IMG/VR virus record: IMGVR_UViG_3300010885_020782
Location: 63,376-127,375 of that record
DNA length: 64,000 nucleotides
Strand: one strand, 5' to 3'
DNA from: a virus
The first letter of the stretch is position 1. Each line of letters starts with the position of its first letter. The translations under genes were made by a program, and so were the position numbers. The notes beneath the pieces were generated by a model that was not told the origin of the DNA, made no database searches, and saw only the letters and a list, made by a program, of their open reading frames with translations. Positions 11,903 through 41,740 of the stretch are shown in pieces.

Positions 11903-11981
11903 GTCTGGAAAGGAAAGCCCCCCGCAAGGGGGGTTTTCTCTTGCAGGAAAAGACAGGTAAAAAGTAAAAACTTGCGAGCGC

Positions 11982-12010
11982 AAAGTTATCCACACCCTGT
12001 GGATAACTTT
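11982..12010. promoter_or_regulatory. Inverted pair of perfect DnaA boxes
   Basis: AAAGTTATCCACA-CCC-TGTGGATAACTTT; TTATCCACA at 11986-94, TGTGGATAA at 11998-12006. Confidence 0.6.
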
Positions 12011-12043
12011 CACTTCCCAACAACTTCCGCAGGGGTGCAAATG

Positions 12044-12119
12044 TGTGGTGCAACTCACACGACATTTTTAATCTTTTTTGCCAAATGTGGTTGCGTTACC
12101 CGTAGCCAACCCTTATACT
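12044..12119 (+). promoter_or_regulatory. CRP-like box plus sigmaA promoter
   Basis: TGTGGTGCAACTCACA (12044-59); TTGCGT (12091-96)-N17-TATACT (12114-19). Confidence 0.75.
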
Positions 12120-12171
12120 TCAGTTAGTGGAAATCGCAAGGGGCGATGGATACAAAGGGGAGATGATAGAA

Positions 12172-12546
12172 ATGTCTTACGGCTCATTTCACAATCTACT
12201 TGCTGGGAACAGTAAGTCCCTTACCGAAATTGAAATCGGTATGGGCGCAACACAAATCGGCTGGTCTGACCGCTACGCCTACACAGTAGTAGGGTTCGAG
12301 CGTTTCAAGACAGGTGCAAAGGCTGGACAAATAAAGGCAGTAATTGCCACTCGCGACATTGCAAAGCGCACAGACTCAAACGGCTACTACACAGAGAGCC
12401 AAGATTACGAGTTCACTACCAATCCAAACGCTAAGCAAGAACGCTACACACTCCGCAAAGATGGTCGCTTTATGCGTGAAGGCGCAACTAATTCAGGCGT
12501 TCTCCTAGTCGGTGTGCGAATGGAATACTTCGACCCACACTTCTAA
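12172..12546 (+). CDS. Conserved phage hypothetical protein (GMGAT..WSDRYAYT)
   Basis: SD AAGGGGAG; start refined from the ORF track. Confidence 0.8.
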   Translation: MSYGSFHNLLAGNSKSLTEIEIGMGATQIGWSDRYAYTVVGFERFKTGAKAGQIKAVIATRDIAKRTDSNGYYTESQDYEFTTNPNAKQERYTLRKDGRFMREGATNSGVLLVGVRMEYFDPHF

Positions 12547-12640
12547 AGTCGGAAAGGAAGCCCCCTCGGAAGAGGGGGTTTCTTTTTTGCTGGAAAAATT
12601 AAAACTATGTAAAAAGTAAAAACTTGCGAGCGTCAAAAAA

Positions 12641-12717
12641 TGTGATGCAACTCACACCAGCACATCTAAACAATTTTCCCAAATGGTCTTGCAACTACTC
12701 AACTAATTAGATACACT
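12641..12717 (+). promoter_or_regulatory. Perfect TGTGA-N6-TCACA box plus sigmaA promoter
   Basis: TGTGATGCAACTCACA (12641-56); TTGCAA (12689-94)-N17-TACACT (12712-17). Confidence 0.75.
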
Positions 12718-12769
12718 TAGACCAAGAAGCCAAGCCACAGGGGGCAAGGCAACTAACAAAGGGAAGCAA

Positions 12770-13033
12770 ATGTCTAAACTAATCACAGACGCAGAACTAA
12801 TCGCAGTAATGAACGGCACAAACAAAGACGGAAAGAAAGTCTTTCTTGCACTTTTTGAGCCACGAAAGAACTCACTTCCACAAATGGACGGACGCTCCGT
12901 AACCTTCCACGCAGACACTAAGGCAGAGGCAGAACGCCTAGCCAAAGAATACGGCAGAAGGATTTTGGATAGACGCTTAGCGTATCTAATGTCTTGCGAG
13001 GTTGAGGAAGCCCGCTACGGACTTCGCTACTAA
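12770..13033 (+). CDS. Small cassette protein
   Basis: ORF track; SD and terminator. Confidence 0.8.
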   Translation: MSKLITDAELIAVMNGTNKDGKKVFLALFEPRKNSLPQMDGRSVTFHADTKAEAERLAKEYGRRILDRRLAYLMSCEVEEARYGLRY

Positions 13034-13237
13034 AGTTAGCGAGAAGCCCCCGAGAAATCGGGGGTTTCTTTTTTTGCATTTTATTTTTTGATTTTGAGTA
13101 AAAAGTAAAAACTTAGTGGCTAGTGCTCGCAACTTCCAAACAACTTTTAGACACCGCACAGGGGGTGGAGAGAAATGGGCTTGCATTGTTGCAACATATC
13201 TTGTATGCTATATCTACCAACTACGAAAGGAAACAAA

Positions 13238-13531
13238 ATGCAATTCACAATTGACCCGCAACTAGGTTCAGGCACTTCACTCAAAGGTTATGTAACTTCA
13301 ACACTTGCAGAACTTATTGAAACCTTCGGAGAGCCCGAATACTTCGCAGAGGGCGACAAAGTAACAGTAGAGTGGTCAATCCTTTTTGATAACGGCACAG
13401 TCGCAACAATCTACGACTGGAAGCGTTACGAGATGGGAAGACCTGCACTCACCGAGGTATTCCAATACAACATTGGCGGACACGACCACGAGGCAGTAAC
13501 GCTAGTAAAAAAGGCACTCCGCAAGGGGTAG
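13238..13531 (+). CDS. Conserved aquatic-phage hypothetical protein (GTSLKGY..FGEP..DKVTVEW..TIYDWK)
   Basis: SD GAAAGGA; recognisable family motif. Confidence 0.8.
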   Translation: MQFTIDPQLGSGTSLKGYVTSTLAELIETFGEPEYFAEGDKVTVEWSILFDNGTVATIYDWKRYEMGRPALTEVFQYNIGGHDHEAVTLVKKALRKG

Positions 13532-13598
13532 TCTCCCGACTTGCAATCAGTAATCCTATGGGTTATGCTTGCTATAAGACAAACTACGAAAGGAACAA

Positions 13599-14210
13599 AT
13601 GACAACAGAGACAACGAAAAACGCTATACCGAAACGAGTTACATATAAAATTGTGGCTAGTGGGGAAGGAAAAATCATCAAGCGAAAGCAAGAACTTCCG
13701 CAAGATGTATTAGATATCTTCAAGGGTATTAGCGACATAAAGCAACGCAACCAATACATAATTGCATTGGGCGAGGCTGGCTGGACGGACTCTTCTATTG
13801 CAAGGGCAGTAGATGTTTCACGGGAACGAGTAAGGCAACTTGCTCAACAAACAACGAGCGACACTTCTCTCATTGGTGATTTACCAATCCCAAAGCCACC
13901 GCGAGAAACAAAGTATTCTAAAGTCTATCCCGAACTTCCAAAAGAAATGCTTGACAGACTATTAGAACTAAAACCACTTGCCCAACAGGTAAGAGGACAC
14001 GGCAAGATGTATCGTGCAGAGGCAGATGAATACACCTACCTTCTCAATCAAGCAATAACAACTCAAGGCATTTCCGTATATCGTCTTGCAAAGTTATTGG
14101 GTGTAACTATTGGTGCAATCCAATTCCGCTTGACACGATACGGCTACCGAACAACAACAGGAAAAAGTAAGTGCTTCCAACCAATTCTAGAAAAGAACCG
14201 CCGTGGCTAA
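13599..14210 (+). CDS. Tandem-HTH DNA-binding protein (paralog 2)
   Basis: GWTDSSIARAVDVSRERVRQL and ISVYRLAKLLGVTIGAIQFRLTRYGY. Confidence 0.8.
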   Translation: MTTETTKNAIPKRVTYKIVASGEGKIIKRKQELPQDVLDIFKGISDIKQRNQYIIALGEAGWTDSSIARAVDVSRERVRQLAQQTTSDTSLIGDLPIPKPPRETKYSKVYPELPKEMLDRLLELKPLAQQVRGHGKMYRAEADEYTYLLNQAITTQGISVYRLAKLLGVTIGAIQFRLTRYGYRTTTGKSKCFQPILEKNRRG

Positions 14211-14811: not shown

Positions 14812-14914
14812 TTGTGCCGTCCTTCCTTGTCCTGCACAGAGCGTAAAAAGTAAAAACAACGCTCGGCTAGTCAATTTTAGATGACCAACCGAGCGTTGAT
14901 TATTGAAAAGGTGT

Positions 14915-15346
14915 TTAGGCTACGACTTCTACCGCAGTGTTCTTGAATAACTTAGTAATAAGTTTCTCATCTAGGACGAGTTCTTGGGTAGAACAACCAC
15001 AAAAGTCAGCAAGGGCTTTTTTAGTTCCTTCGCTTAGGTGTCCGCGACTATCAGAACCTGCGTCATCAAACCCGAGAACAATAAGTTGTTCTTGAACTAA
15101 GGCGACAGACGCAGAGTTGTGAGCAAACTTGTTTCCAAGCGCAGACAACGAAACAACTCCCGCAGTTGTTGAAACAACAGCAGGGGACTTTTTACTTTTT
15201 ACTACTGGTTCAGGCTCGACAGCCACAGCAAGAACAGGGGCAGGTTCTTCAACCACAGCCACAACCTCTACAACGGCGTCAGAAGCCTTTACTACTTCAG
15301 GCTCTACCGCAGGGGTAAAGACACTATAAAGGTCTTCATTACTCAT
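14915..15346 (-). CDS. Hypothetical protein with possible peptidoglycan-binding C-terminus
   Basis: VALVQEQLIVLGF..DSRGHL...TKKALADF resembles PG_binding_1. Confidence 0.55.
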   Translation of the reverse strand: MSNEDLYSVFTPAVEPEVVKASDAVVEVVAVVEEPAPVLAVAVEPEPVVKSKKSPAVVSTTAGVVSLSALGNKFAHNSASVALVQEQLIVLGFDDAGSDSRGHLSEGTKKALADFCGCSTQELVLDEKLITKLFKNTAVEVVA

Positions 15347-16541: not shown

Positions 16542-16741
16542 TTGATACCCCCCTTTCAAGACAAAGCATATAACACTCCATCATAGAAGTCAAGGGCAAT
16601 TAGAAAGGAATCAGGAAGAAGTTGTTGGGAAGTTGTGAAACCTGGCGAGCGCGAGGGCTTGGAGATACGCATAAAAAGTAAAAACTTACCCGCACAAAAA
16701 GAAACCCCGCACAAGGCGGGGCTTCTTCGTGGCAAAGTTAT

Positions 16742-16873: not shown

Positions 16874-17009
16874 TGGAATCCCCTTTCAATTTGTTAGGCA
16901 CAATATAACAGTCTTCAGGCAGTAAAGCAAGGAAGTTGTTTAGAAGTTGCCCGCAGCGAGGCTTGGACTCACGCATAAAAAGTAAAAAGTCCCACGGGAA
17001 AAAACGCTA

Positions 17010-17276
17010 CTAATCTTCGTAGTAGCGATTTTCGCAGGAACGCGAACCACAGTTGGCATAGCGAACCCCCGCAAGGCGGAAGGGAATGTCCCCGCCACAA
17101 ATCTCGCATAGGGGAATGCACTTCGAGCAGAAATCGCCCAAAGACTCTGCGGGCTTACCGCAGTCAGGGCAGGTGTGCGACAACTCCGCACAACGCCCGC
17201 ATAGGTGCGAACCACGCACCACAGAAATATCATCAGAAGCGTAGCCACAGTTGGCGCAAGTGTTGGAATCGAACAT
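17010..17276 (-). CDS. Cys-rich multi-zinc-finger protein
   Basis: Six CxxC-type pairs in 88 aa. Confidence 0.7.
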   Translation of the reverse strand: MFDSNTCANCGYASDDISVVRGSHLCGRCAELSHTCPDCGKPAESLGDFCSKCIPLCEICGGDIPFRLAGVRYANCGSRSCENRYYED

Positions 17277-17422: not shown

Positions 17423-17575
17423 CTACTTCTCTCGACTTGCTAAGGTTGCAGAGGCAACCGCAGACAAGCCCAAACTAATAGACCACGCCACACTACCTTG
17501 CCAAGACGCCACGAAAGACGCCACGATAAACAAGATAGTTCCAACAGCAGTCCAAACTATATTCAAGTTGTTCAT
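17423..17575 (-). CDS. Small membrane protein
   Basis: Manual translation MNNLNIVWTAVGTILFIV...; SD. Confidence 0.6.
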   Translation of the reverse strand: MNNLNIVWTAVGTILFIVASFVASWQGSVAWSISLGLSAVASATLASREK

Positions 17576-17778
17576 TTGTTTCCCTTCTTTCCTTTAGGAC
17601 TTGTGCGTCCTTTAGTTCTAGCAGAGGGGTTTCTTATTTCAGCCCCACCACCTTGAATTGCTTTGCGAGCGCAACGATAGGACACGGCAAGTTCTCTAGC
17701 CACATCATCTATCGAAAGACCACCGCGATACAAAGAACTTGCGCTGGCTTCTAACTTTTTACTTTTTGCTACTCTCAC
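17572..17778 (-). CDS. Small HTH protein
   Basis: GLSIDDVARELAVSYRCARKAI. Confidence 0.65.
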   Translation of the reverse strand: MRVAKSKKLEASASSLYRGGLSIDDVARELAVSYRCARKAIQGGGAEIRNPSARTKGRTSPKGKKGNK

Positions 17779-18260
17779 GCAGACTTGTCCTCTTCATCTT
17801 CGTAAGGTCGTTGAACCGCGTTACGAATTACCGCAGGGTCTAATCCCTTGTCCCTCAGCCATTGAGCAGTCTGTGGGTCTTGTGCGTTGTCTGTAACGTG
17901 CCTTCCTTCGTTCCAAGTAAAGAAAGAAGTTGTTCCTTCAGGTAGAACCCAAAGATGGTATTGGTTAGAGGTATCAACAAGTTGGCTTTCAGGTGGAAAG
18001 ATTTCTACGGCTTCTCTTTCAGAACCTGCAAGTTCGTTCTTGATACGCTGGAAGTGTCGCCAATCTCTAATAGCCTTGCGTTCGTTATGACGAATCGAAA
18101 GGTGAAGACCACTGGTTTCTCCAAGTTCAGGTTCTAAAATTGTCTTGACGACAACATAAAACCTGTTCTTCCAAATTGTTTGATGGGGTTCAAGGTCAAT
18201 CTTCTTCCCATTTACAGTTGGAGTTGCTTCCTCGAACTTATCCCAAAGGGGCTTAGTCAT
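17775..18260 (-). CDS. Conserved phage protein (DUF7694-like)
   Basis: HLSIR..DWRHFQRIKNEL.G.EREAVEIFP.ESQLVD..NQYHLW. Confidence 0.75.
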   Translation of the reverse strand: MTKPLWDKFEEATPTVNGKKIDLEPHQTIWKNRFYVVVKTILEPELGETSGLHLSIRHNERKAIRDWRHFQRIKNELAGSEREAVEIFPPESQLVDTSNQYHLWVLPEGTTSFFTWNEGRHVTDNAQDPQTAQWLRDKGLDPAVIRNAVQRPYEDEEDKSA

Positions 18261-18427
18261 TATCCGCGCCTCTTCTTGATAACTCGATAGATTCCATAAC
18301 CAAGCAGAGCAACAATTAGTGCTGGGGTATAGACAGATACGCCAAAGAAGTTTGACGAAATTTCAATCCACTCGAACTGGCAAGTGAAACTACAGTTAGC
18401 GTCAGAAATTACCTGTGTTGTTTCCAT
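18260..18427 (-). CDS. Small membrane protein; 14-bp motif between SD and ATG
   Basis: Manual translation METTQVISD...YRVIKKRRG. Confidence 0.6.
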   Translation of the reverse strand: METTQVISDANCSFTCQFEWIEISSNFFGVSVYTPALIVALLGYGIYRVIKKRRG

Positions 18428-18581
18428 TTTTACTTTTTACTCCTTTCGTCTCGTAGAAGTTTCCGCAACCGATAATTCTCTTTTGTGAGATTTCGGTGGG
18501 ACATTATTGAGATTACCATTACGGCGCACGAACTGGCGAGCGCAATAGTAATTCCGATTAGCGTTCCTGTATCTAAATACA

Positions 18582-19421: not shown

Positions 19422-19544
19422 CTTGTTCCCCTTTCGTTGTTGTTAGCCCAAGTATAACACTCTCTCCCCCCGAAAGTCAAACAGGGGGTTCGGGGAGAGA
19501 GCGTGTCGTTTAGGGGGCACATAGAAAGTTTTTACTTTTTACTA

Positions 19545-20780: not shown

Positions 20781-20928
20781 CTTTTGGAAGTTGAGGCGAG
20801 GCGGGCACCGGAGCGTGTAAAAAGTAAAAACTCTCCCCTGAGTCCCCACTTCGCAACAACCTACCCGCGAGCGCAATAAAAAAATCCCCCACCTCTCGGC
20901 AGGGGACTTTTAGGGAAGTTATCTGTAT

Positions 20929-21402: not shown

Positions 21403-21587
21403 TTGTCCCCCTTTCTTAGGTAACCGAAGTATAACAACCTATCACGAAGAAAGTCAAGTCAAGACACGAAAGTTATTGTGAAGTGCAGGACCGGCGAGGG
21501 CCCGGACTGAACAAAACTTTTTACTTTTTACTTTCATAGGGAGATGCAAAAGCCCCCGCATCTCTGCGAGGGCTTCCGCGTCAACCT

Positions 21588-21728
21588 TTAGAGATACTTC
21601 ATCGGGTCGGCATCTTCAAAGATATCTTCGATATCAGTGAAAGACCAAGTCTCCCAATTTATCTCTTTCATATTGAACTTGATACGGCAGTCTTGGCAGG
21701 TATCAAGGTCGCAATTAGAGTGTTGCAT
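21588..21728 (-). CDS. Mini protein (46 aa)
   Basis: Manual translation; SD and promoter at 21756-84. Confidence 0.6.
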   Translation of the reverse strand: MQHSNCDLDTCQDCRIKFNMKEINWETWSFTDIEDIFEDADPMKYL

Positions 21729-21921
21729 ACTTCCCCCTTTCTCTAATGTAGCCTAAGTATAATAGTCGGCTAGAGATAAGTCAAGGGCAGACACGAAAGT
21801 TATTATGAAGTCGAATGCACTTGGTTGCTGTTGCTGAAGAAAGTTTTTACTTTTTACTGTTACCGCAAAAAAAAAGAAAGAGAGCGCGGGGGGAACCGCG
21901 CCCTCTCCTTGTGGGGGAAGA

Positions 21922-22772: not shown

Positions 22773-23016
22773 AGTTGAATAATAAACCATCAACCGCAAT
22801 AAGTCAAGTATCTAATAAACCGAAAGTGTGTTCTACATCACATAAAAAGTTCTCGAAAACATTAACATTTATTTTGCTAAGGGTTTTAGCCAATAGGCGT
22901 GAGAAAGTTGTTTGGAAGTCCAGCACCGCTAGGGGACAGCCCCGCATAGTTTTTACTTTTTACTTTCCTATTGCAAAAGAAAAACCCCGTATTTCTACGG
23001 GGCTTCTCTCTAAGGC

Positions 23017-23205: not shown

Positions 23206-23387
23206 TGTGTTCCCCCTTTCTGTTGCCCTAAGTATAACCCTAGAAAGGTTCATAAGTCAAGTCAAGACACGAAAGTTATTGTGAAGTCCAGCACCGCTAG
23301 GGGTAAGTCCGCGTATAAGTTTTTACTTTTTACTGTTTCACCGCAAAAGAAAAAACCCCACCCGAAGGTGGGGCTTCTCCTAATTGT

Positions 23388-24689: not shown

Positions 24690-24904
24690 TTCTTCCCCTT
24701 TTCTTTATTAGGTTCAGTAGGGGAGTCGTATTGTTTCCGCCCCTTGCAAGTTATAGGCGTTCAGGTGACCAGCGACTTTCCCCCTACTGAATACCCTAAG
24801 TATAACCAAAAGGGGAAGAAAGTCAAGTCCTCTAGGCACGACACGCCAAAGTTATTTGGAAGTTGCCCTCGCAGCGAACGCCGGCGAGCGCAAGTTTTTA
24901 CTTT

Positions 24905-25480: not shown

Positions 25481-25518
25481 CTTCTTCTCTCCCGTTACCC
25501 TTCAGTTTTTACTTTTTA

Positions 25519-25770
25519 CTACTTCCAGAAGCCGTCCCAGAGTTCTTCTCTAAGTTGTTCATACTTATCGCCGTGATGCCCGTTGTATTTCGCAGAAATA
25601 TCTTCACCTCTAATGAGATAGTCTAGCGAAAGAACGGCGGTATAGTCAGTATCGCCAAACATAATAACAAGTTTAGCGTCCCCGTCAGAGGGGTCATCTA
25701 CAATAGCAACAACGAAAGGCTCGCCAGAGCCGTTAGCGTGAAAGTCCTTAGCAATAATATCCATACCCAA
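25519..25770 (-). CDS. Hypothetical protein
   Basis: ORF track. Confidence 0.6.
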   Translation of the reverse strand: MGMDIIAKDFHANGSGEPFVVAIVDDPSDGDAKLVIMFGDTDYTAVLSLDYLIRGEDISAKYNGHHGDKYEQLREELWDGFWK

Positions 25771-28508: not shown

Positions 28509-28961
28509 CTATTCTTCGTCCCACTCTTCCGAGTCTTCGTCCGAGTTTTCTTCCTTAGACTTATAGACAACTTCCTCAACAGGCATAAAGTCCAATAAGT
28601 CTAAGTCCTGCGTCAAGTCAAGAACTAGACACTCTTCGCACCTCTTGTAGTCAATAGACCTCTCAAAGTGGCGAAGTTCCTCTATGGAAACATCTAAACC
28701 ACTCTCCATCTTGGCAAGAATAATTCTTGTCCGCAAAGCCCTATGCTCTAACATATTTTGAGCATAGACATAATCTTCGTGGCGAATAAGGTCAGAGTCT
28801 TTGATTTGCTTTTCCTGTGTCTTGCAAGTCGGCAACCAAAGTGTGTCTTTATCTATGATTAGTTCGTAACCATCATCAGAAGTTTTAGTTGAGATAGGTT
28901 CGTAACTATGTAGAACTTTGCTAGTTAGTGGGTTGTGCGTGTATTTTCTTTTGTTAGTCAT
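28509..28961 (-). CDS. Hypothetical protein
   Basis: ORF track. Confidence 0.65.
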   Translation of the reverse strand: MTNKRKYTHNPLTSKVLHSYEPISTKTSDDGYELIIDKDTLWLPTCKTQEKQIKDSDLIRHEDYVYAQNMLEHRALRTRIILAKMESGLDVSIEELRHFERSIDYKRCEECLVLDLTQDLDLLDFMPVEEVVYKSKEENSDEDSEEWDEE

Positions 28962-29093
28962 AGTGCAACCTTATCAAATAGTTTTTGGTTTTGCAACTTA
29001 TCTCTCCCCTGCGTGTCGTTTGTGTTTTTACTTTTTACTATCCCTGTTTTGTAAGAAACCCCCCACCCTTTCGGGTGAGGGGCTTCCTCGCAA

Positions 29094-29480
29094 TTACTTG
29101 CCTGTCTTGAGAGCCTTGTAAGGGGCTGGAATTGTGAAGTCCTTGAGTAGGGCTTCAACTGTTGGGTGTGTCTTGAAAAGGTTTTCCTTATCAAGTTTTG
29201 TAGCGTTGATTGTTGCAACACGCACAACAACATTACCTGCAACTGTTCCTGCTTCCGCAGTTCCTACCCACTCATCATTTACGAGTGTGTATCCGAGTAG
29301 TGCATAGAGTTCAGCCTTTAGAGCCTTCTCTGTATCTTGATTGGCTTTGATAGTGTCTTTCACGCTATCAAGTTTTACAAGCAGTTCGCTTGCATTAGTT
29401 GCGTCAAGCGCAACTTGCGTTGTAGTAACAGATGTAACAACCTTTGTTGTTACTTCTGTTTCAACTTTGGTTCTAGGCAT
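29094..29480 (-). CDS. Hypothetical protein
   Basis: ORF track; SD; promoter TTGCTT-N17-TAAAGT with perfect CRP-like box at 29604-19. Confidence 0.75.
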   Translation of the reverse strand: MPRTKVETEVTTKVVTSVTTTQVALDATNASELLVKLDSVKDTIKANQDTEKALKAELYALLGYTLVNDEWVGTAEAGTVAGNVVVRVATINATKLDKENLFKTHPTVEALLKDFTIPAPYKALKTGK

Positions 29481-29614: not shown

Positions 29615-29896
29615 TCACACCTTTCCCCACGCTCGGGCTTCTGTGTATGGCTCTGCCACAAAGTCAGCCCCTTTGATTAGGTCATAAGGAAAGTCAGCCT
29701 TAGCCCTTGCTTCTCCAATGCGCTCGGCTTCGGCTTCGGTTTTGGCTTCTACTTCGTAATAAGCATTTGTTGCGGTTTCATCTTCAGAGAAGTATCCACG
29801 CACTATCCACTTTTTACTTTTTACTTTCAATCCAGTTTCTCCACTTCTATCTCGGTTGAGCGTGAGAGGTCGTGTCCATACTCGTTCTCCAACCAC
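29615..29896 (-). CDS. Small hypothetical protein (start uncertain)
   Basis: ORF track; contains the 14-bp motif in frame (KVKSKK). Confidence 0.5.
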   Translation of the reverse strand: MVGERVWTRPLTLNRDRSGETGLKVKSKKWIVRGYFSEDETATNAYYEVEAKTEAEAERIGEARAKADFPYDLIKGADFVAEPYTEARAWGKV

Positions 29897-29980: not shown

Positions 29981-30226
29981 TTAGTCATTAGGGCTTGCCG
30001 TTTCTGCTAATACCTCGTTCGCTAAATCTACGAAGTCTTCGGCAGCAGAACTTTGGAAATACCACTCGCCGTCTTCATACTTGTCGCAGACTTGCTCCCA
30101 TTGTTCGTCCGTCAAGGTCAAGCCGTCTGCGTATCCTTCAACACACTCTTTGTCCCAGTATGCAACAAGCAACTCGGTTTCAGGTGCGTATGCCGTTAGT
30201 TGTTCTATTAGTTTTTTTACTTGCAT
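29981..30226 (-). CDS. Acidic small protein; motif between SD and ATG
   Basis: ORF track. Confidence 0.7.
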   Translation of the reverse strand: MQVKKLIEQLTAYAPETELLVAYWDKECVEGYADGLTLTDEQWEQVCDKYEDGEWYFQSSAAEDFVDLANEVLAETASPND

Positions 30227-30388
30227 AGTTTTTACTTTTTACCTTTCTTGGTTATGCGCTCGCCAGTTGTCGGTTAGGTTCGTGCGGTAGTGGAACATCT
30301 CCACGCCAATCACAAACCGAGCCGTTGTATGTATCTATCCACATACCAAAATCTTGCTTTACTTCCCAGCCACACTTGCGACAGATAT

Positions 30389-30667: not shown

Positions 30668-31195
30668 TTAAAAGTGGAAGTCAATCGGCACTAGGTATTG
30701 GCGTGTCGGGTCTTTCTCCACTCGTTCCCAAAAGAACTCTAGGCTTGCCGAGTGTTCCTTTAGGTCATAAACACCTGTATCAGAACACCAATCATTAGAG
30801 AGAAGTCGTCCTAACCGCAGTAAAGACCAAGCGTCCATAGTTGAGCCATAGTTATACTTGTTTGGGTTGTAGTCCTCAACAAGTTGTTCTAGGTTGAAGC
30901 CTTCTGTTTTTATTTGTTCTAGGTATCGCAACATTTCTTTTTTACGATAACTAGCAAAGTCTTTGATAATGTCGTTTGCAAGAACGGGGTTCTCTGTGTA
31001 TGCAAGAACATCTCTGTTCTCTTCCCAGCCTTCAAACAATCCTGACCAGCGACCAGCAAGCCCTTCGTCAAGACCCCCGTGCCAATCTGACCACGCAGGG
31101 TATGGAGTTTCTGAATAAGTAATAGTTGTTTTGGCGTAGTCAATAGCGTCCTGTGCGCTATCCGCTTCAATCAACATAATCTGACAAGTGTGCAT
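30668..31195 (-). CDS. Hypothetical protein (SDW..AGRWSG..VPIDFHF)
   Basis: ORF track; motif between SD and ATG. Confidence 0.8.
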   Translation of the reverse strand: MHTCQIMLIEADSAQDAIDYAKTTITYSETPYPAWSDWHGGLDEGLAGRWSGLFEGWEENRDVLAYTENPVLANDIIKDFASYRKKEMLRYLEQIKTEGFNLEQLVEDYNPNKYNYGSTMDAWSLLRLGRLLSNDWCSDTGVYDLKEHSASLEFFWERVEKDPTRQYLVPIDFHF

Positions 31196-31250
31196 TTTTA
31201 CTTTTTACCCTTTCTTTCGTTCTTGGTTGAGAACTATTATCCCATTTTAT

Positions 31251-31691
31251 TTATGCAAAGTCAAGTAGCAACATCTTTTCATTTTCATACTGTTCCTTCA
31301 CATAGGAACTCGCACTTTGGAGAGCCTCTGAAATACTGTCGCATACCCAATCTAAATGCTCTCCGCGACAATACAAGTCAAACCAGTTGTTGTTGTCCCA
31401 GTTCAAGGCGTTCTCGCCATTAGCAAGGCGTAAGTCCTCATCACAATTTATACCTAAGCCATAAAAATCTGACGCAGTTCTAAGGATTGTTTCTGTTGGT
31501 TCGTGGATTACACGAACTTCTCCATCTGCATAAACATCTACCTCAAACCCTTTATAGGAAACTTGGCAGATAAATCCATCACCTTCATACCAAAGGCTAT
31601 CGTCTTGTTTTTCTAAGTTGGGAGCAACTCCAGAAAACATAGAAGCCCAAACAACTTTTGAACCTTCTAATAATTCTTCTACTGTTTTCAC
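31251..31691 (-). CDS. Hypothetical acidic protein
   Basis: ORF track; SD. Confidence 0.75.
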   Translation of the reverse strand: MKTVEELLEGSKVVWASMFSGVAPNLEKQDDSLWYEGDGFICQVSYKGFEVDVYADGEVRVIHEPTETILRTASDFYGLGINCDEDLRLANGENALNWDNNNWFDLYCRGEHLDWVCDSISEALQSASSYVKEQYENEKMLLLDFA

Positions 31692-31861
31692 TTCTATCCT
31701 TTCGTCATTGGTTTTTACTTTTTACTAAGTAGTAAGTGAAACCCCACAAAGGGGGTAAGGGGGCTTCACCTACTTAGGGTGTTGGTTCGCAGGTTCAGTT
31801 GTGGTGGAACTGACTTGCGTTGGAAGGACGCACCACACGAACCAACACTTCTTTTAGAACA

Positions 31862-33643
31862 TTAGGCAACCGCCCTCTGTCCAACTCTAGTTAGAGCGTC
31901 TGCACACGCCTTGCCAATTACTTCACTTGCTTCCGCAGGATTAGTAATGTCGTCAATAACTTTAGCGTATCCACCGCCTAAATCGTTTGCTCTGTGTCCA
32001 TTACTGAAAGGCAACCAAACAATTGCAACGCCAGCCTTCTCACATTGAGCCATAGCCCTACGAACATTGGCAGGTTCGTTGCCTGAATAGCAACCATCAG
32101 AAACGATTACGAGTAATTTCGCACCACTTCCATTTAGTAAGTTGAGAGAACCTTCTAGTGCTTTGTATGCTCGCTCAAACTTTTCAGTTCCGTCCTCTGC
32201 TGAATAAACATTTACTTGTTCTAACTTTTGTCCTGACTTTAGAACAGGGAAAACATCATTACCGAAATAAACCATAGCGCACTCACCTTGAATACGATTT
32301 ACTGCTGACGACATTACCCAAGCAGTTGTAGCCATTGGGTTCATAGCACTTCCCATTGAACCTGAAATATCAACCATAATTCCAACTTTGAGAGTTGGGT
32401 CGTCTGTGTGCTTGCGAACTTTCTTTCGGAAAGGTTCTACCTTTGTATGAATACCGCGAGAGCGTAATGCTTCGCGTTGAATAAGTGCGCGAGTGCGTAA
32501 GCGTCCGGGTGGAACTTCACTAGACTTCTCAACAACATCTCGCTCACGATACTTAGCCTTCTCTAACCAGCGACCAATAAGAACTGACGCAGAACGCTCC
32601 GCACCTGTTGGGTTGCGAGTTTCAACTAACTTACTATCAGTTCTACTCTTACCCGGCCCTGACGACTTTGAGAAAATCTCTGTTGAGATTTCTTTATTCT
32701 CTAAGCGTTCCTGACTTTCCTTAGCCTTTGATTGTGCTTGCTCTTTCCAATCATCTGATTGCTCTGCGTCAGAGAGTTCCCCGAAGTTATTTACTTCTAC
32801 TGTTGAAGCACCTTCATCTAGTGCCTCAAGAATTTTCTCTAGCATTTCTCTAGGGATAGGGAAGCAACCTTGTGTGCCTTCCTCATCTCCGCGCTCTTTC
32901 GCTAACTCACGAACAATTTTTGCCCACTCAATAGCGATAGGGTAAATATCTGTAAGGTCAGTATCGTTAGTGTGGAATTGTGCTTGACGAGCAAGCGAGC
33001 GCAACTTCTCAACAACTTCAAGACCAAGTTCCTTCTCAATCATTTCTGTAATCTGACTTACTTCATCTGCGTCAAGAATACCTGCGTCAATGCGACTATG
33101 AACAAGACCAACAAGATTAGTAAGTGATTGAGTTGTGCTTGTCTTTTCCGCACCTTCTTTTACATCTCCAATAACAATTTCCATAGCGCAAGCACGAAGG
33201 AAAGGACGAGCAGTTGGCATAGCAGTTAGACCGCGATACTCAATGCGACTTTCCTCTAGCAATACAAGTGCTTGGTATTCGTCAGACTTTAGTTCGCTAT
33301 ACGCCTTTGGCATAGACCAACTAGAGAAGCGAGCGTGGAAGGCTTCGTGCATAATCGCACCTATCGCCTTTGGATATTCGTAATGAGTTGAACGATTAGT
33401 TAGGTCGCCAATTTGTTCGGGTGTAATACCTTTTCCAAACGCAACTTCAACATTTACTTCAACTTCTGAAAGTGTTGGGTTGTAGCAAGCAGGAGCGATA
33501 CCACCTGCACCTGCGCCAACATAAGCAACTAAATCTCCGCGATTAGACCACTTGTTAGCAAGTGTTCCTATGTCGCGTCCTACTGATAACCACTCAACAG
33601 GCGTATGCGCTGTTCGTGTATCGTCAAACTTTAGATGAGCCAT
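31862..33643 (-). CDS. vWA (MIDAS) protein with N-terminal HExxH, CobT-like partner
   Basis: HEAFH, LEESRIE, VDISGSM and VIVSDG motifs; 593 aa. Confidence 0.85.
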   Translation of the reverse strand: MAHLKFDDTRTAHTPVEWLSVGRDIGTLANKWSNRGDLVAYVGAGAGGIAPACYNPTLSEVEVNVEVAFGKGITPEQIGDLTNRSTHYEYPKAIGAIMHEAFHARFSSWSMPKAYSELKSDEYQALVLLEESRIEYRGLTAMPTARPFLRACAMEIVIGDVKEGAEKTSTTQSLTNLVGLVHSRIDAGILDADEVSQITEMIEKELGLEVVEKLRSLARQAQFHTNDTDLTDIYPIAIEWAKIVRELAKERGDEEGTQGCFPIPREMLEKILEALDEGASTVEVNNFGELSDAEQSDDWKEQAQSKAKESQERLENKEISTEIFSKSSGPGKSRTDSKLVETRNPTGAERSASVLIGRWLEKAKYRERDVVEKSSEVPPGRLRTRALIQREALRSRGIHTKVEPFRKKVRKHTDDPTLKVGIMVDISGSMGSAMNPMATTAWVMSSAVNRIQGECAMVYFGNDVFPVLKSGQKLEQVNVYSAEDGTEKFERAYKALEGSLNLLNGSGAKLLVIVSDGCYSGNEPANVRRAMAQCEKAGVAIVWLPFSNGHRANDLGGGYAKVIDDITNPAEASEVIGKACADALTRVGQRAVA

Positions 33644-33816
33644 TTCTTTCCCCTTCGTTAGTATCAGGCTTCCGACCTGATAAACCTAGTATCCTCTTTT
33701 GTTTTCCTTTTGTCAAATCCTGTCTTTGGCGTGTTGGGGGTAGATAGGGGGAGCGAGCGCACCCAAGAAGGCTCACTCAACCCCTACCCGAACCAAAACC
33801 TAGCGACAGGGAAGGG

Positions 33817-34866
33817 CTAGATTTTGGCTGTCTTACACTCTGCTCCGAAGGAGCGAGAGAGAACATCTGCGACAGTTGCTCTGTCGTTTTCAGGTGCGCC
33901 AGCAATCAGATTAGAGATAGCAAACTCTGCTCCGAAAGTTGTTGAAATGTCGCGGAACGCGAGCAACTCACGCATTTGAGGACACCAAGAAACTTCGTTA
34001 GAAAGTTGCTTGCGTGAAAGATTTTGTGAAGCAGTAATCAACATAGCAGGAACGCCAAGTTTCTTAGCCAAGTTCCAATCAGTTGTCATTTCAACTTGGA
34101 GAGTGAAACGAGAAGTCAATGCTTCGCTAATACGAACTCCGGGTGCGTTTGGATTTGTAGCACTCACCACAAAGAAATCAGGGTGAGCCTTGACAACTCC
34201 GCGTTCAGGATTGGCAGATACAAATACTTCTCTGCGTCCGTCCATAGCACCATAAAGGATTGAAAGAACTTTAGGGTCAATCAAACCAATTTCGTCAATA
34301 AAATAAACCCAACCATTTTCCATACACTTGACTAAATCTCCGTCCAGCCAATCGTATGTTCCACTTGGTGATTGAATAAAGTTTCCAAGTAAATCAGAAA
34401 CTTCAATGTCTCCGTGTCCAACGAGTGTTCGCATTTCAGCACCGAAGGTTGCTTCAACCAACGCAGTTTTACCTGTGCCGGGTGCGCCATAAAACATTGG
34501 GAACAAAGGCGAACCTTCGTTTGTAAGAACTGATTGCTTAGTTGCTTCTCTCGCATTACGCAGAGCCATTACATCTTGGTGTGTTCCCCACATACGAGCA
34601 ACATACTTAGAACCATTAGGTCGGAAATAAACATCATCTCCAACTAGAGCGTCAATGCTTGGTAGAGAACTCATCTTAGGTTTTCTTGGCTTTCTATCTG
34701 CGCCACTTGCGCGAGCAACATAGCGACCACTTGGGGGAACAACTGCACTAAGTGTAGTTGAAGCAACTTCATTTACTCCCTGTGTGGCAACTTCAATAAT
34801 CGTATCCCAAAGGCTTGGGGTCAGATTTGGACTTAGTTGAGCATACTGCTCTTTCATTGTTGTCAT
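33817..34866 (-). CDS. MoxR-family AAA+ ATPase (CobS/CbbQ-like)
   Basis: Walker A GAPGTGKT, Walker B FIDEI, ATNP sensor, EALTSRF. Confidence 0.9.
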   Translation of the reverse strand: MTTMKEQYAQLSPNLTPSLWDTIIEVATQGVNEVASTTLSAVVPPSGRYVARASGADRKPRKPKMSSLPSIDALVGDDVYFRPNGSKYVARMWGTHQDVMALRNAREATKQSVLTNEGSPLFPMFYGAPGTGKTALVEATFGAEMRTLVGHGDIEVSDLLGNFIQSPSGTYDWLDGDLVKCMENGWVYFIDEIGLIDPKVLSILYGAMDGRREVFVSANPERGVVKAHPDFFVVSATNPNAPGVRISEALTSRFTLQVEMTTDWNLAKKLGVPAMLITASQNLSRKQLSNEVSWCPQMRELLAFRDISTTFGAEFAISNLIAGAPENDRATVADVLSRSFGAECKTAKI

Positions 34867-36723: not shown

Positions 36724-36876
36724 TTATTCTCCCTGTTCCTCTAATGCACGGCGCTTGTTCTCCAAACGAGTGCGGTTGCGTTTAGTTCTCTTGTCAGCGA
36801 ACACCTGTGCTTTTTGGTTCAGCACAAAGCGACCTCGCAAGCGAAGCAAGCCGTCAAGAGCGTTTTTCTTTTTCAT
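36724..36876 (-). CDS. Small Arg/Lys-rich protein, leaderless
   Basis: Manual translation MKKKNALDG..DKRTKRNRTR; TAGACT 6 nt before ATG. Confidence 0.65.
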   Translation of the reverse strand: MKKKNALDGLLRLRGRFVLNQKAQVFADKRTKRNRTRLENKRRALEEQGE

Positions 36877-37361
36877 AGCACCAGTCTAACGCTTGCCGTT
36901 GATTTGTCAAGCCCCGTTGCTGAAGACACGCCGACTTCCTAACAACTTCTTTAGCGGGGCTCAGCGCATCTGCTACTTTTTACTTTTTACTCGGTTCGGT
37001 ATAAGCGCTCGCCGTTTTTACTTTTTACTCTCCAGGCCCTGGCGGTTGGTGCACTTCCAAATAACTTATACAGCGCTGGCAGCAAATGTTTTCTGGTGCA
37101 CTTCCGAACAACTTCAAGATGTCAAGACGGCGGCGGAAATCTTCAGCGGTTAGATAAAAGAAAAAGCGTGCCAACTCCGTGTCTCGCACGAAATTATTGG
37201 CACGCCGTTTGTTGCGTTTGAATTAGTCTTTGGTGTCGGGGCAGACTTCCTCTAGGTTTGAATCATCCTGCTTTACAGCGCAGATGGAACAAATGGTAAT
37301 CATCCCGAAGCCGTCATCCCTATCGGGAATCTCAACGAATAAGTGGTTCATAGATGTAATC

Positions 37362-38631: not shown

Positions 38632-38892
38632 TCATTTCACAATCTCCGCATACTCGCTAGACATTTCGCTAAGGACATTTGAAAGATGTTGGTCGTGGGG
38701 GTCAAGCCCTCCAGAAGATTCCATCTCCTCAACCATTTTGAGCCAGCCCTCGTCTGTGAGAGTCATCTCATCTTCCTCGGGATAATCAAATGTATCTTTT
38801 GAATAAATCAAAACAATAACTTCATCTTCAGCATCGTAGTTCGTGGTTACCATTTGGACCAGGTCTTTGACTTTCATACAACTTCCTTTCAT
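38632..38892 (-). CDS. Acidic small protein
   Basis: ORF track; real start probably MKVKD. Confidence 0.65.
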   Translation of the reverse strand: MKGSCMKVKDLVQMVTTNYDAEDEVIVLIYSKDTFDYPEEDEMTLTDEGWLKMVEEMESSGGLDPHDQHLSNVLSEMSSEYAEIVK

Positions 38893-39137
38893 TGGTTGGT
38901 GTGTCTGGGTAACGGGCTTTTTGGCCTAGGACCTCAACCCTCTTCGTCATCCATCTGGAATTCGCCCCAGACACAAGACGTATCTAAACATACTGAAATC
39001 AGGTTGTCAAGTCCTAGGAAATAAAAAAGTCCCCGTGTTCGCTGATGGCGGGGAAACCCATCAAACCAAGTCATAATGCTTAGAACTAGAAAGGTAGATG
39101 TCTAAGCGACTTTGCGAATTATAAAGTAACAGCGGTC

Positions 39138-39389
39138 TTAGTCTCCTGTCAAATCGTGTCGTGCTCTAGCAGTCTCTTCCATCTCATCGGTTACTTCTGT
39201 AGTCTTCGGAAGATTGATAATCTCACCCGTTACAGCATCCACAATTTGTCCATTCACAATCTGGAGTTGAGGTCCCTGGTCAAGATGTCTTCCCAACAAC
39301 TCATCAACGTCAGCGGTTACTTGTATGTATCCCTTTTGCACTTCGCGTTTGAGCAGTGCGTATCCAACCCACGCCGTTATGAGTCCCAT
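39138..39389 (-). CDS. Small protein downstream of whiB
   Basis: ORF track; SD GAGAGGGG. Confidence 0.65.
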   Translation of the reverse strand: MGLITAWVGYALLKREVQKGYIQVTADVDELLGRHLDQGPQLQIVNGQIVDAVTGEIINLPKTTEVTDEMEETARARHDLTGD

Positions 39390-39664
39390 CGGTCCCCTCT
39401 CAGCGCTTGCCGTTGTTCAACGGTCATGCCTCCCCACACCCCGTATTGCTCGGGGACATTGAGTGCGTGCTCAAGGCACGCCGTTCTCACTGGGCACGCC
39501 CCACATACTGCGAGCGCTCTCGATTCGCGGGCCGCTTTCTCGGGGCCCCGTTGACCGTGTTCGAGAAAAAATATTTCAGTGTCTTCATCTTTACACAGGC
39601 CGTGTTCTTGCCATGCATAAAAGTCAGCGGTTGGTTTAAGTCTTTCGATAATTTTTGTGTCCAT
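39377..39664 (-). CDS. whiB: WhiB-family Fe-S transcription factor (WhiB3/WhiD-like), leaderless
   Basis: WQEHGLC..FF..GQRG..C..CPV...CLEHAL..E.YGVWGG; TTGACA (39695-700)-N17-TACCGT (39672-77), 7 nt before ATG. Confidence 0.92.
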   Translation of the reverse strand: MDTKIIERLKPTADFYAWQEHGLCKDEDTEIFFLEHGQRGPEKAARESRALAVCGACPVRTACLEHALNVPEQYGVWGGMTVEQRQALRGDRWDS

Positions 39665-39719
39665 GGCAGCAACGGTACAAGCAGCGCTCGTCGTTGTCAA
39701 GTGGTGGTGGTGGTGGCGG

Positions 39720-40640
39720 AGGTTTCAGTGGCGGCGGGCCGTTTGTCAAAAAGTTATTTGGAAGTTCACTTTCGCATCGGAGATGCGAAAGCAGTCTACT
39801 CCCCAGGCAAGCCGTTGTCAAGTTTTTCTAAGCGTGGCTCAGAAGACGGTTGGCCGCCAGGTAGACATCACAACAACTTATTAATTCACGGTTGGTCCCA
39901 CAAGTCCCGTTGGTCCGACCGGTCCTGGTACCAACATCTCAACAACTTAAATTTTCACAGCAGCATCTGGAGCATCGGTTAATACTCAGTCGGACGTCTG
40001 GTCCCTCGACATCTCAATAACTCGAACGGTTCACCTGGCAGCATCACGGTTCGTTCCATCATGTGGGTTGGTCCCACTCGTCACAATAACTTCAGCGGTT
40101 GACTACAGCACTGTCGAGGCAGCGGTTAAATATATACAGCGTCCCCATCTACCAGGCCGCTCTTCGTCCAGGCCGCCTTTGAGTTTTTACTTTTTACTAG
40201 CGGTTGACTCAACCCAGGAATCTGGAGAAGTAATAAACAGCAGCGAGCATCACGGTCACGCCGCTTATGAGTTTAATCACATCAAGCACGGTTATCCTCC
40301 AAGCCGCTCTGTGTATACGGTTAGAACTAAGGGTGTACGAATCTTACGGTTATATGAACGTTACTGCACCGGCGCAGCGGTCAACTTCACAACAACTTCC
40401 TTACGCGGGCCGCTCTTCAGCGGCAAGCCGTTCTTCTCTTTTGACTGCACATTGGGGGCACACGGTTAATGACTTGTCATACGCCTCGCCGCACCAGAAG
40501 CAATCGGTTAATACGGTTTCCATCTTGGGTCCTTACTTTTTACTTTTTACTTTTTACTCTTACGACACGCCGTCGTTTCGATTTGACATCAATACGTTAT
40601 CTTAGTAGGCTAGGTTCTTGCCAAGCCTACTTAGATAACT
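39720..40640. repeat. Non-coding kilobase with about 70-bp degenerate periodicity and clustered motifs
   Basis: 15-mer copies at 39865, 39934, 40009, 40078 (spacing 69/75/69); over 15 CGGTT/CGGTC; (TTTTTAC)x3; palindromes at about 39769-39790 and 40596-40639. Confidence 0.7.
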
Positions 40641-40791
40641 ATTTACTTTTTATATGGTTGAACAGTTCAAGGGCTTCGTTAGCGCGAGCCGTTACGCGGA
40701 TATGTTCTTCCCTGGTCTTTGACAACGGAATATCTTCTTGAAGTCTTTCCGCCAGGCGGGCCGCCAACTCCTCTAAGTTATTTTGTTCCAT
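40639..40791 (-). CDS. Small helical protein (50 aa)
   Basis: Manual translation MEQNNLEELAARLAE..TREEHIRVTARANEAL; SD GAGGAG. Confidence 0.65.
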   Translation of the reverse strand: MEQNNLEELAARLAERLQEDIPLSKTREEHIRVTARANEALELFNHIKSK

Positions 40792-41707
40792 CGGTTGGCT
40801 CCTCGCCGTTTAAATTGTTTGAGTCCTCCATGACCACTTCAGCCTCAATAACTTTTACATCTACAAGGCTGGCCGCTTTCCGTTGGGCAGCATCAGCGAG
40901 CCGTTGCAATCTTTCAGCCACGATGTCTTTGGCGGGCCGAACCTCAAGAACTCCACCTACATCAACTTCCACGCCACCTCTTACACCAGCACGGTCAAGT
41001 ATCTCGGTTGAGGCTTTAAGGCGGACTGGTTCTGACTGAGCGGTATCCATCAACTCTTCAAGAACATCAACGGCTGCGCTCGCAGATTGCTTTAACTTCT
41101 GGCGTGCCCACTCGACATCTGCTCCTGGCCGACGGTTAGTTCGTAGATGGATGCGACACAAGCCGTCATCCTTTGGACGCCCGCTCGACCATAACATACA
41201 GCGGATGCCGTCGGTCTTGACAATTCGGCATCGGTGAGGTAGACTGGAAGGTGCACGGTTTTTACTTTTTACTACCTTGCCGTTTTCCTCGTCAACGAAT
41301 AGACGGGTTGCACCAAGTACCCAAGGTGGTGTAACCTTGCAAGCAGCCTCATCTACCAAGAGGTCGAGGCCCGTTAAGAAGTCTGAGTTGTTTTTAGTTG
41401 GGTCGGTTAGAAGTGCTCGCTTCTCGGAAAGGCTTTGGAGGCGACGCTCTTTCAGTGCTTCCTGGGAACGCCCTGCAATCAAACCCGTTGGTCGTCCTAG
41501 TTGGTCATAAACTGTGTCCCACTGCAAGCCCGCGGCGCGAAGCGCTCTGCGGTTATCTGCTGTGTCTTCGACGATGCCGCGTTCGTGCTCAAGGAGTCCG
41601 AGGGCTGAGAGGTCGGGTCGGTAATCATATGGGGTATCGAGGTCAGGAAGTTTAGAGGTTGGGTCTTCCTCTTCGCGCTCGCCAAATAGGTCAATCTCGG
41701 TTGCCAT
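40778..41707 (-). CDS. Terminase small subunit-like protein
   Basis: Cys/His cluster CR..K.DG.RC..LCRIH and AVDVLEELM..VRLKASTEILDRAG, as in actinophage TerS-like proteins. Confidence 0.5.
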   Translation of the reverse strand: MATEIDLFGEREEEDPTSKLPDLDTPYDYRPDLSALGLLEHERGIVEDTADNRRALRAAGLQWDTVYDQLGRPTGLIAGRSQEALKERRLQSLSEKRALLTDPTKNNSDFLTGLDLLVDEAACKVTPPWVLGATRLFVDEENGKVVKSKNRAPSSLPHRCRIVKTDGIRCMLWSSGRPKDDGLCRIHLRTNRRPGADVEWARQKLKQSASAAVDVLEELMDTAQSEPVRLKASTEILDRAGVRGGVEVDVGGVLEVRPAKDIVAERLQRLADAAQRKAASLVDVKVIEAEVVMEDSNNLNGEEPTDGTK

Positions 41708-41740
41708 TAGTTTTTACTTTTTACTTTCGGTTAAGGACGA

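Follow-up and report, generated by a model that had tools for sequence, protein, structure and literature searches.

The start-associated sequences (SAS) of Cluster K mycobacteriophages are exact motifs of ca. 13 bp that occur in many copies on one strand, directly upstream of start codons. The stoperators of Cluster A mycobacteriophages (L5, Bxb1, TipsytheTRex) are asymmetric 13- to 14-bp sites in more than 20 copies, intergenic and strand-biased, that are bound by the two-domain, monomeric repressor of these temperate phages, and different lineages use different versions of them (PMC9283540, PMC6550527). In T4-type phages, the promoter-early stem-loop (PeSL) is a combination of promoter and stem-loop that is conserved between small early genes (PMC2839356, PMC4122927). 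Here, we describe box M, a 14-bp word repeated in a 64,000-nucleotide stretch of the IMG/VR virus record IMGVR_UViG_3300010885_020782 (hereafter the window), which comprises bases 63376–127375, the right half, of a single contig of 127,375 bp and 43% G+C and belongs to an uncultured, tailed lake phage with actinobacteria as hosts. Box M is a genuine element that marks gene and cassette boundaries, ca. 29 of them, in the early, host-takeover gene array of this phage; it is confined to that array, placed at its boundaries, tolerant of inversion, and replaced by lineage-private words in related phages. We put the probability that it is a double-stranded DNA docking site for a sequence-specific protein controlling transcription across cassette boundaries, in the manner of a stoperator, at roughly 45%.

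Box M is the non-palindromic 14-mer GTAAAAAGTAAAAA (reverse complement TTTTTACTTTTTAC), for which the window holds 27 exact overlapping matches at 26 loci, one of them (40537–40557) consisting of three heptamers in a row. Only three copies with one mismatch were found (16671, 16975, and 17756), which gives 29 loci and 30 copies, and this recount bears out the 26 exact and three one-mismatch loci between 11957 and 41724 that an earlier note on this DNA had reported from the letters alone. Shuffled sequences are expected to hold 0.02 exact copies and none of 100 shuffles reaches 27. All exact copies are located at positions 75,332–105,099 of the genome (11957–41724 of the window, 30 kb) and none in the remaining 97 kb (P ~4e-17 for confinement to 30 kb of 127 kb). 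Words with two mismatches are few, and two of them (50686 and 62843) lie outside the region, where the earlier note had rightly seen no exact copy but had listed a single weak one. A k-mer count over the full genome, which had been suggested as a check, shows GTAAAAAGTAAAAA to be by far its most over-represented 14-mer, followed by words from the collagen-like coding repeats of tail fibers. In viral and cellular collections, the word gave only isolated matches or one tandem run each among the first 114 and 120 stretches listed. The 27 aligned copies share 14 invariant positions and a preference for A at -1 (21/27), C at +1 (19/27), and T at +2 (20/27), so that the full site in this phage reads A-GTAAAAAGTAAAAA-CT, and the flanks beyond are random without conservation. 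These sharp bounds together with the near-absence of degenerate copies amount to an all-or-none pattern of the kind that a high-affinity site should show. In 26 of the 30 copies, the coding strand is the A-rich one; the four flipped ones (14843, 16671, 16975, and 20817) are all real, and the last three hold the usual position between terminator and promoter while 14843 forms the T-run of a hairpin.

Relatives were retrieved via the conserved AAA-ATPase of the block (33817–34866), which yielded 66 related IMG/VR loci. Five metagenome contigs among them (G001–G005) carry the same word and make, together with this phage, a set of six genomes. G002 and G003 share ca. 90% nucleotide identity with this phage, and the proteins of G001 (123 kb, 92% complete), G004, and G005 are ca. 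40% to 80% identical to its own. The word recurs at orthologous sites in these five independent contigs, so that chance or artefact is ruled out by the shuffles, the confinement, and this recurrence taken together, in agreement with the earlier view that an assembly artefact was unlikely.

The block marked by box M consists of small, separately promoted genes, and in most cases a gene comes with a host-type promoter and an intrinsic terminator for itself. A scan of the minus strand from 17 to 31 kb revealed 16 promoters that read TTGACT-16/18-TATACT or TATTAT. The commonest order of signals is stop codon, GC hairpin and T-run, ca. 20 nt, box M, a GC-rich spacer of ca. 30 nt, a second motif (motif B), 7 to 13 nt, -35 and -10 hexamers, ribosome site, and ATG, for which one junction may serve as model:

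23356–23373, minus strand: terminator stem-loop, 22 nt upstream of box M
23320–23333, minus strand: box M, in the order hairpin, T-run, M, B, promoter, and ATG at 23205
23273–23287, minus strand: motif B (ACTTCACAATAACTT), just upstream of the -35 hexamer
23231–23260, minus strand: host-type promoter TTGACT-18-TATACT

Motif B has the consensus ACTTCCAAACAACTT, i.e., two AACTT words 11 bp apart, with 35 matches between 11900 and 41000; many -35 hexamers have it, in one or the other orientation, at 7 to 13 bp on their upstream side. In contrast to box M, it is common to many related lineages, where variants such as AACTTCCAACGAA and TCCAAATAACTT are found. The other 28 loci of box M are as follows:

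11957–11970, plus strand: terminator, M, B, and promoter ahead of gene 12172–12546
12609–12622, plus strand: terminator, M, and promoter ahead of gene 12770–13033
13098–13111, plus strand: terminator, M, B, and promoter ahead of gene 13238–13531
14843–14856, plus strand: flipped relative to the local minus-strand genes, on whose coding strand it is the T-run after hairpin 14857–14898; flipped in G005, too
15189–15202, minus strand: inside coding sequence (CDS) 14915–15346, where it reads VKSKK; absent from G001, G004, and G005
16671–16684, plus strand: one-mismatch copy ATAAAAAGTAAAAA, flipped, in terminator–M–B–promoter position
16975–16988, plus strand: one-mismatch copy, flipped, 9 nt after terminator 17005–17027 and 26 nt before motif B
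17756–17769, minus strand: one-mismatch copy GCAAAAAGTAAAAA where gene 17775–18260 adjoins the start of a gene for a 68-aa helix-turn-helix (HTH) protein; kept in G001, G004, and G005
18427–18440, minus strand: between a Shine-Dalgarno-like run and the ATG of gene 18260–18427; kept in G001, G004, and G005
19529–19542, minus strand: 49 nt before promoter 19451–19480, abutted by a 150-bp indel relative to G002/G003
20817–20830, plus strand: flipped, in terminator–M–B position
21518–21531, minus strand: terminator, M, B, and promoter; one edge of a cassette absent in G003
21844–21857, minus strand: terminator, M, B, and promoter; the other edge of this cassette
22950–22963, minus strand: terminator, M, B, and promoter
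24895–24908, minus strand: contains the stop codon of the HslV-like gene 24905–25480 and is followed by B and a promoter
25506–25519, minus strand: between the stop codon of gene 25519–25770 and the ribosome site of the HslV-like gene; co-transcribed genes, no terminator or promoter
26413–26426, minus strand: 15 nt after gene 26442–26789 and 136 nt before promoter 26250–26277
29025–29038, minus strand: 20 nt after a terminator, ahead of gene 28509–28961
29811–29824, minus strand: immediately ahead of a GTG, at the start of or just inside open reading frame (ORF) 29615–29896; not kept in relatives
30229–30242, minus strand: preceded by a purine-rich run and followed by the ATG (2 nt) of gene 29981–30226; kept in G001 and G004, not in G005
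31195–31208, minus strand: in a 5' leader, in the order promoter, Shine-Dalgarno-like run, M, and ATG of gene 30668–31195
31712–31725, minus strand: after a terminator, 7 nt before the ribosome site of gene 31251–31691
36977–36990, minus strand: proximal copy of a direct pair upstream of a gene for a 50-aa basic protein
37015–37028, minus strand: distal copy of this pair; the orthologous pair of G005 is inverted
40184–40197, minus strand: in non-coding, repeat-rich DNA of ca. 1 kb between a gene for a 309-aa protein and whiB
40537–40557, minus strand: triple heptamer with two overlapping copies, 13 nt before a 40-aa zinc-ribbon ORF; kept in G001, G004, and G005
41259–41272, minus strand: inside the 309-aa core gene 40778–41707; not kept in relatives
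41711–41724, minus strand: 3 nt upstream of the ATG of the 309-aa core gene, with which the array begins; kept in G001, G004, and G005

At least 12 copies are thus found in untranscribed DNA that separates an intrinsic terminator from the following promoter. Box M ends 50 to 140 bp upstream of the -35 hexamer, with motif B in between, and its distance from the upstream stop codon clusters at 53 to 68 nt, which corresponds to the terminator plus ca. 20 nt; across lineages, terminator-to-box distances mostly range from 15 to 42 nt in the partial distribution given by a strict hairpin finder. The distance to the start codon spans -1 to ca. 200 nt (mostly 100 to 200) and is not constant among the copies that adjoin a start. 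Four copies abut a start codon after a purine-rich run (18427, 31195, 30229, and 41711) and three more lie 13 to 26 nt away from one (40537, 31712, and 25506), so that start-near copies, defined as located between a Shine-Dalgarno-like run and the start or within 26 nt, make up ca. 6 to 8 of the 29 loci. Only four loci fall fully within called CDSs though the region is 73% coding (P ~5e-11). Among the four copies that had previously been read as lying in frame within CDSs, 15189 and 41259 are firmly internal, while 17756 and 29811 turn out to be at or next to start codons. Boxes are found at only ca. 40% of the boundaries.

Some further features adjoin individual boxes. Right after the first one, a perfect 10-bp inverted repeat (AGTTATCCAC...GTGGATAACT, 11982–12006) holds two words that resemble DnaA boxes, TTATCCACA and TGTGGATAA, and more TGTGGATAA words adjoin the boxes at 20817 and 26413. 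The stretch of ca. 1 kb at 39700–40600 has no credible gene; its G+C content is elevated, and besides one box M and the triple box it contains more than 12 AACCG/CGGTT words, several motifs B, and three promoters with TTGACA. It could represent a replication origin or else a hub of regulation.

Over the six genomes, the invariant core of the box is AAAAAGTAAAAA. Position 1 is G or A, and position 2 is T in this phage, mostly C in G001 and G004, an about even mix of T and C in G005, and occasionally G. The tandem-heptamer look of the word, which the earlier note had taken for its repeat unit, is therefore incidental, and the variation at positions 1 (G/A) and 2 (T/C/G) around a fixed A5-GT-A5 likewise speaks against the footprint of a 7-bp target-site duplication. 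Within the stretches analyzed, we counted 28 copies of the core in G002, 22 in G003, and 19 to 24 in G001, G004, and G005, and all 15 matches to GYAAAAAGTAAAAA in G001 are found inside 24 kb of its 123 kb. When junctions were anchored on flanking orthologues, the box had been kept at 8 of 11 testable ones in G001 and at 9 of 12 in G005, although the flanking proteins there are only 40% to 80% identical and the spacers otherwise unalignable. The copy at 25506, for example, is kept within a gap of 41 to 45 bp in G001, G004, and G005, and the one at 29025 has an orthologous copy in the G001 lineage (locus L118) as well as a copy in the wider interval of G005, whereas neither of the firmly internal copies is kept in relatives. 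Individual sites at fixed junctions are thus under purifying selection. Of three other readings of the variable positions, one was weakened and two were rejected: A concerted change from T to C as proof of co-evolution is weakened by G005, which has both forms about equally; wobble pairing with a guide RNA does not account for the G that also occurs at position 2; and the idea that the word preserves stops in two reading frames, for which a TAG would compensate in the lineage with GC, fails with the GC copies of G005, which have no TAG.

More distant lineages do not carry box M, and each of them has its own most-repeated 12- to 16-mer in the same block, e.g., GAAAAAATAAATAC, AAAAAATGAATAC, AAAAAAGTGGATAC, GGAAAAAATGAAAAAT, or GGTTACACGGAAAAA. 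These words are located between terminator and promoter, every one of them contains an A5-6 tract, and, contrary to this phage, most of these lineages have the T-rich strand as coding strand (13 to 16 of 14 to 17 copies). Within 14 kb of G006, a complete genome of 153.7 kb, its word is found 15 times, while the partial genome G007 has 38 copies at a spacing of 400 to 600 bp, i.e., about one per cassette. In these two genomes the word is found ca. 22 to 27 bp upstream of the -35 hexamer, and by comparison box M is farther from the promoter, present at ca. 40% of the boundaries only, and also found at start codons. Actinomycetia phage DSL-LC01, a metagenome-assembled phage from Dishui Lake whose portal protein is 74% identical to that of our phage and which is its closest named kin, has neither box M nor a separate box; the word repeated most often there is the extended -10 promoter element. 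The paper on DSL-LC01 makes no mention of promoters, repeats, or motifs. Seven of the related loci (L140, L157, L163, L168, L175, L176, and L181) encode an excisionase-like HTH protein of ca. 90 aa just upstream of the orthologue of the 309-aa core gene and also an XRE-like HTH protein of ca. 95 aa (genes at ca. 3.3–5.1 kb and 14–16 kb). Both differ far more between word types than within them and are candidate word readers of these lineages; in this phage, a simple motif search revealed no protein corresponding to either.

That box M acts at the level of DNA, as the earlier note had proposed, is favored by the copies in the gap between terminator and promoter, by the flips that keep a conserved position including the direct pair that is inverted in G005, and by the use of the opposite strand in sister lineages. 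Its sharp bounds of 14 to 17 bp, the scarcity of degenerate copies, the conservation site by site, and the lineage-private words favor a docking site for a protein, and private codes per lineage are what would be expected of a co-evolving pair of protein and site as in the case of stoperators (PMC6550527, PMC9283540). From this pattern we infer that a protein, probably phage-encoded, most likely binds to box M and would set the behavior of RNA polymerase at the boundary. The box is found with or without terminator or promoter and is thus not tied to any one transcription signal, which, together with its usual position ca. 20 bp past the U-tract, makes a roadblock or insulator our favored sub-mechanism among several that are conceivable. 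A protein bound ca. 20 bp past the U-tract of a terminator would stall read-through polymerases on that terminator, and where a box immediately precedes a start codon, the same protein would switch the downstream gene off. The outcome would be a block-wide switch that could serve, for example, early shut-off or the insulation of neighboring strong units. A more elaborate version, which we consider doubtful as a whole, has box M and a private phage protein form a boundary-insulator switch of the host-takeover array of a lytic phage. The protein, perhaps an extra, fast-evolving paralogue of the tandem-HTH proteins described below, would sit ca. 20 bp behind terminators or on start regions, where leaky termination would become complete and chosen genes would be silenced, and a separate word for each lineage would keep co-infecting relatives from cross-regulating each other.

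Several observations weigh against a docking site with a role in transcription. The strand bias and the copies in 5' leaders also fit a role at the level of RNA. Box M is missing upstream of about half of the strong promoters, and about half of the boxes are not followed by a promoter. The inversion of a stoperator abolishes its function (PMC9283540), whereas inversions of box M are tolerated, so that the mechanism may differ. We also found no binder of box M among the DNA-binding candidates of the array, and scans of ca. 70 proteins against Pfam and PHROG turned up no repressor homologue; nor did anything in the analysis point to Lsr2 or a host nucleoid protein, which the earlier note had brought up. 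The only DNA-binding family at the end of the array, that of the tandem-HTH proteins, is present in lineages with other words, too, and its second HTH hardly varies there. Two proteins of the array deserve mention in this regard:

13599–14210, plus strand: 203-aa tandem-HTH protein with which the array closes; its first HTH is similar to sigma region 4 ("RERVRQ" helix)
36724–36876, minus strand: 50-aa, very basic protein (16 K+R) encoded just downstream of the double box

The former has a paralogue at 54680–55261 (plus strand) with 41% identity. Copies at the end of the cassette array are found in this phage, G001, G006, and G007; G000 and G001 have both paralogues, G006 has one of the common type, and DSL-LC01 has none. 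The array-end protein evolves fast, and its recognition helices differ among G000, G001, and G005. Tandem-HTH proteins had been suggested as binders before our analysis, and the fast evolution of the extra array-end paralogue in the M-carrying genomes keeps it a weak candidate for reading box M, but the near-invariance of the common type despite different words does not fit, and this type may be a better candidate for the shared motif B. The 50-aa basic protein is 92% to 98% identical in G001 and G004, compared to ca. 70% for neighboring proteins, and is a candidate nucleic-acid binder without match to any known family. The 68-aa HTH protein of gene 17572–17778 was rejected since it is widespread across lineages with other words, and no DNA-binding domain could be recognized in the products of the genes restricted to M lineages (29094–29480, 9723–10070, and 18260–18427).

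Box M could instead be a recombination joint, that is, a short homology linker at module boundaries through which crossovers add, delete, or swap single-gene cassettes as known for PeSLs (PMC2839356, PMC4122927). The array is indeed mosaic between relatives. In G003, cassette 21532–21843 is missing, and a chimeric junction joins the upstream flank of the box at 21844 to the downstream flank of the one at 21518, with the crossover located in box M or at most ca. 5 bp after it; indels also abut boxes at 19551 and 16992. However, of ca. 25 indels or replacements relative to G002/G003 only ca. 5 touch box M and ca. 20 end elsewhere, and a second clean cassette loss (11981–12546) crossed over in the terminator region instead. 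Selection for shuffling, being of second order, is moreover not expected to keep boxes letter-perfect at fixed junctions across lineages of ca. 70% nucleotide identity. Box M is therefore able to provide a patch of homology, yet breakpoints are neither usually nor exclusively located in it, and we think it unlikely that recombination is what it is for. Site-specific recombination at the box is unlikely as well, given that most indels do not end there, and it has no dyad or core of the kind used by the small serine recombinase of this phage. This protein (219 aa, resolvase domain) is encoded at 62079–62738 (plus strand), just upstream of a primase/helicase gene. The same arrangement is found in DSL-LC01, which is termed lysogenic in its paper.

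A signal in RNA seems no less of a long shot to us. Here, GUAAAAAGUAAAAA in early transcripts would be recognized by an RNA-binding protein or an endoribonuclease of the phage (e.g., in RegB- or RegA-like control or in the processing of read-through transcripts) or else form an unstructured, A-rich translation leader. The coding-strand bias would be explained, as would the ca. 8 copies at or near start codons, of which the one at 31195 lies in a leader downstream of its promoter, and the same placement at start codons in the G001 lineage; an arginine-rich, 50-aa protein is encoded beside the double box. Yet the copies between terminator and promoter would be transcribed only by read-through, flipped copies hold their position, one box of the pair is inverted in G005, and related lineages have the T-rich strand as coding strand. 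The strand bias may also simply follow from junctions having been copied with their orientation.

It is quite improbable in our view that box M is an A-tract read by the host, i.e., a UP-like or curvature element for the alpha subunit of RNA polymerase or a host nucleoid protein that boosts early promoters. The word of every lineage has an A5-6 tract, and the word of G006 and G007 contains ATTTATTTTTT, which matches the distal UP-subsite consensus (AWWWWWTTTTT), at ca. 22 to 27 bp upstream of -35; at locus L172, the word is found ca. 15 bp upstream of -35. UP elements and nucleoid sites, however, are degenerate, whereas here 12 to 14 positions are invariant and the word differs by lineage, and box M is too far upstream of -35 with motif B in between and lacks a promoter in half of its copies while half of the promoters lack it. 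Last, a private promoter read by the host polymerase with a phage factor, like the T4 late or middle elements, and defining a second temporal class of transcripts would account for a short, invariant, and strand-biased word upstream of genes, for the TAAAAA-6 nt-ATG geometry at 18427 and 31195 that resembles leaderless transcripts, and for genes without obvious sigma-70-type promoter after a box (e.g., 31251–31691), but is very unlikely given that the protein scans found no phage RNA polymerase or sigma factor, that the distance to the start is inconstant even among start-adjoining copies, that flipped copies and flipped related lineages would fire antisense, and that a normal promoter follows the word in the G007 lineage.

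The genomic surroundings of the array are those of a tailed phage, with portal, terminase, primase, fibers, endolysin, and ribonucleotide reductase. Beyond DSL-LC01, the more distant kin of its portal protein are found in Microbacterium, Arthrobacter, and Gordonia phages, and neither megablast nor blastn against named phages gave a nucleotide match to the genome. The longest box-free stretch of the block (31862–34866, minus strand) encodes a CoxE-like VWA protein and the MoxR/CobS-like AAA-ATPase, a pair present in all 66 related loci. A protein of the Mom family (53237–53875, minus strand; Pfam PF25680, E = 1.5e-44) suggests that the adenines of the phage DNA may be modified, and a methyltransferase is encoded at 51082–51870. 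Outside of the window, a 218-aa protein encoded beside the primase gene (L182:2883–3539) has a GmrSD C-terminal nuclease domain (E = 9e-13). Two proteins show weak resemblance to proteasome/HslV proteins (24905–25480 and 58328–58873, both minus strand), and the gene of the former is flanked by two boxes, both kept in relatives, one of which provides its stop codon. Gene 28509–28961 (minus strand) looks leaderless, with the order TTGCAA-17-TAAGGT, 6 nt, and ATG within 28961–29010.

To our knowledge, large lytic phages of lake actinobacteria are not yet in routine culture, and their early genes are almost all of unknown function. An invariant and lineage-private boundary word offers a handle on the regulation of such phages in that it defines a regulon, provides a bait for the regulator, and would allow the temporal class of a gene to be read from the sequence, while the clean loss of a cassette from box to box documents how genes are gained and lost in these arrays. 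If a terminator-coupled roadblock is confirmed, it would extend the stoperator principle beyond temperate mycobacteriophages and supply compact insulator parts for actinobacterial synthetic biology, and the full insulator switch would be a stoperator-like principle that works outside of lysogeny and in conjunction with terminators.

Compared to known systems, box M differs from the UP element (ca. -40 to -60, directly upstream of -35) in its placement, which the word of G007 at 22 to 27 bp approaches more closely. The analogy to SAS drawn in the earlier note applies to the start-near minority of its loci only, since most copies are found behind a terminator, ahead of a promoter, and 100 to 200 nt away from the next start. 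With the PeSLs, the array shares small early genes with own host-type promoters and terminators, differences between relatives by whole cassettes, and at least one crossover exactly in a shared junction. The composite of promoter and terminator between small ORFs is found in the junction as a whole (16 promoters with terminators), but the most conserved part here is an additional third element, the 14-bp box, which is neither promoter nor hairpin and not the usual breakpoint. The stoperators resemble box M most closely in that it is present in more than 20 copies of similar length, non-palindromic with little degeneracy, mostly intergenic, strand-biased, and in a different version per lineage. 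This part of the earlier interpretation, a DNA-level site that marks one gene block with stoperators as nearest analogue, has found indirect support, and the comparison to SAS beyond a minority of copies and the heptamer unit have not. The analogy does not extend to genomic distribution, as stoperators are spread genome-wide and box M is confined to 30 kb of 127 kb (24 kb of 123 kb in G001). Stoperators also belong to temperate phages with an immunity repressor, whereas neither a repressor nor a tyrosine or large-serine integrase was found in this phage, and box M is A/T-rich, usually located right after a terminator, and tolerant of inversion at conserved positions. By analogy, box M itself may thus be described as closest to the stoperators, set apart from them by its restriction to a single gene array and, as far as can be judged, by its independence of orientation.

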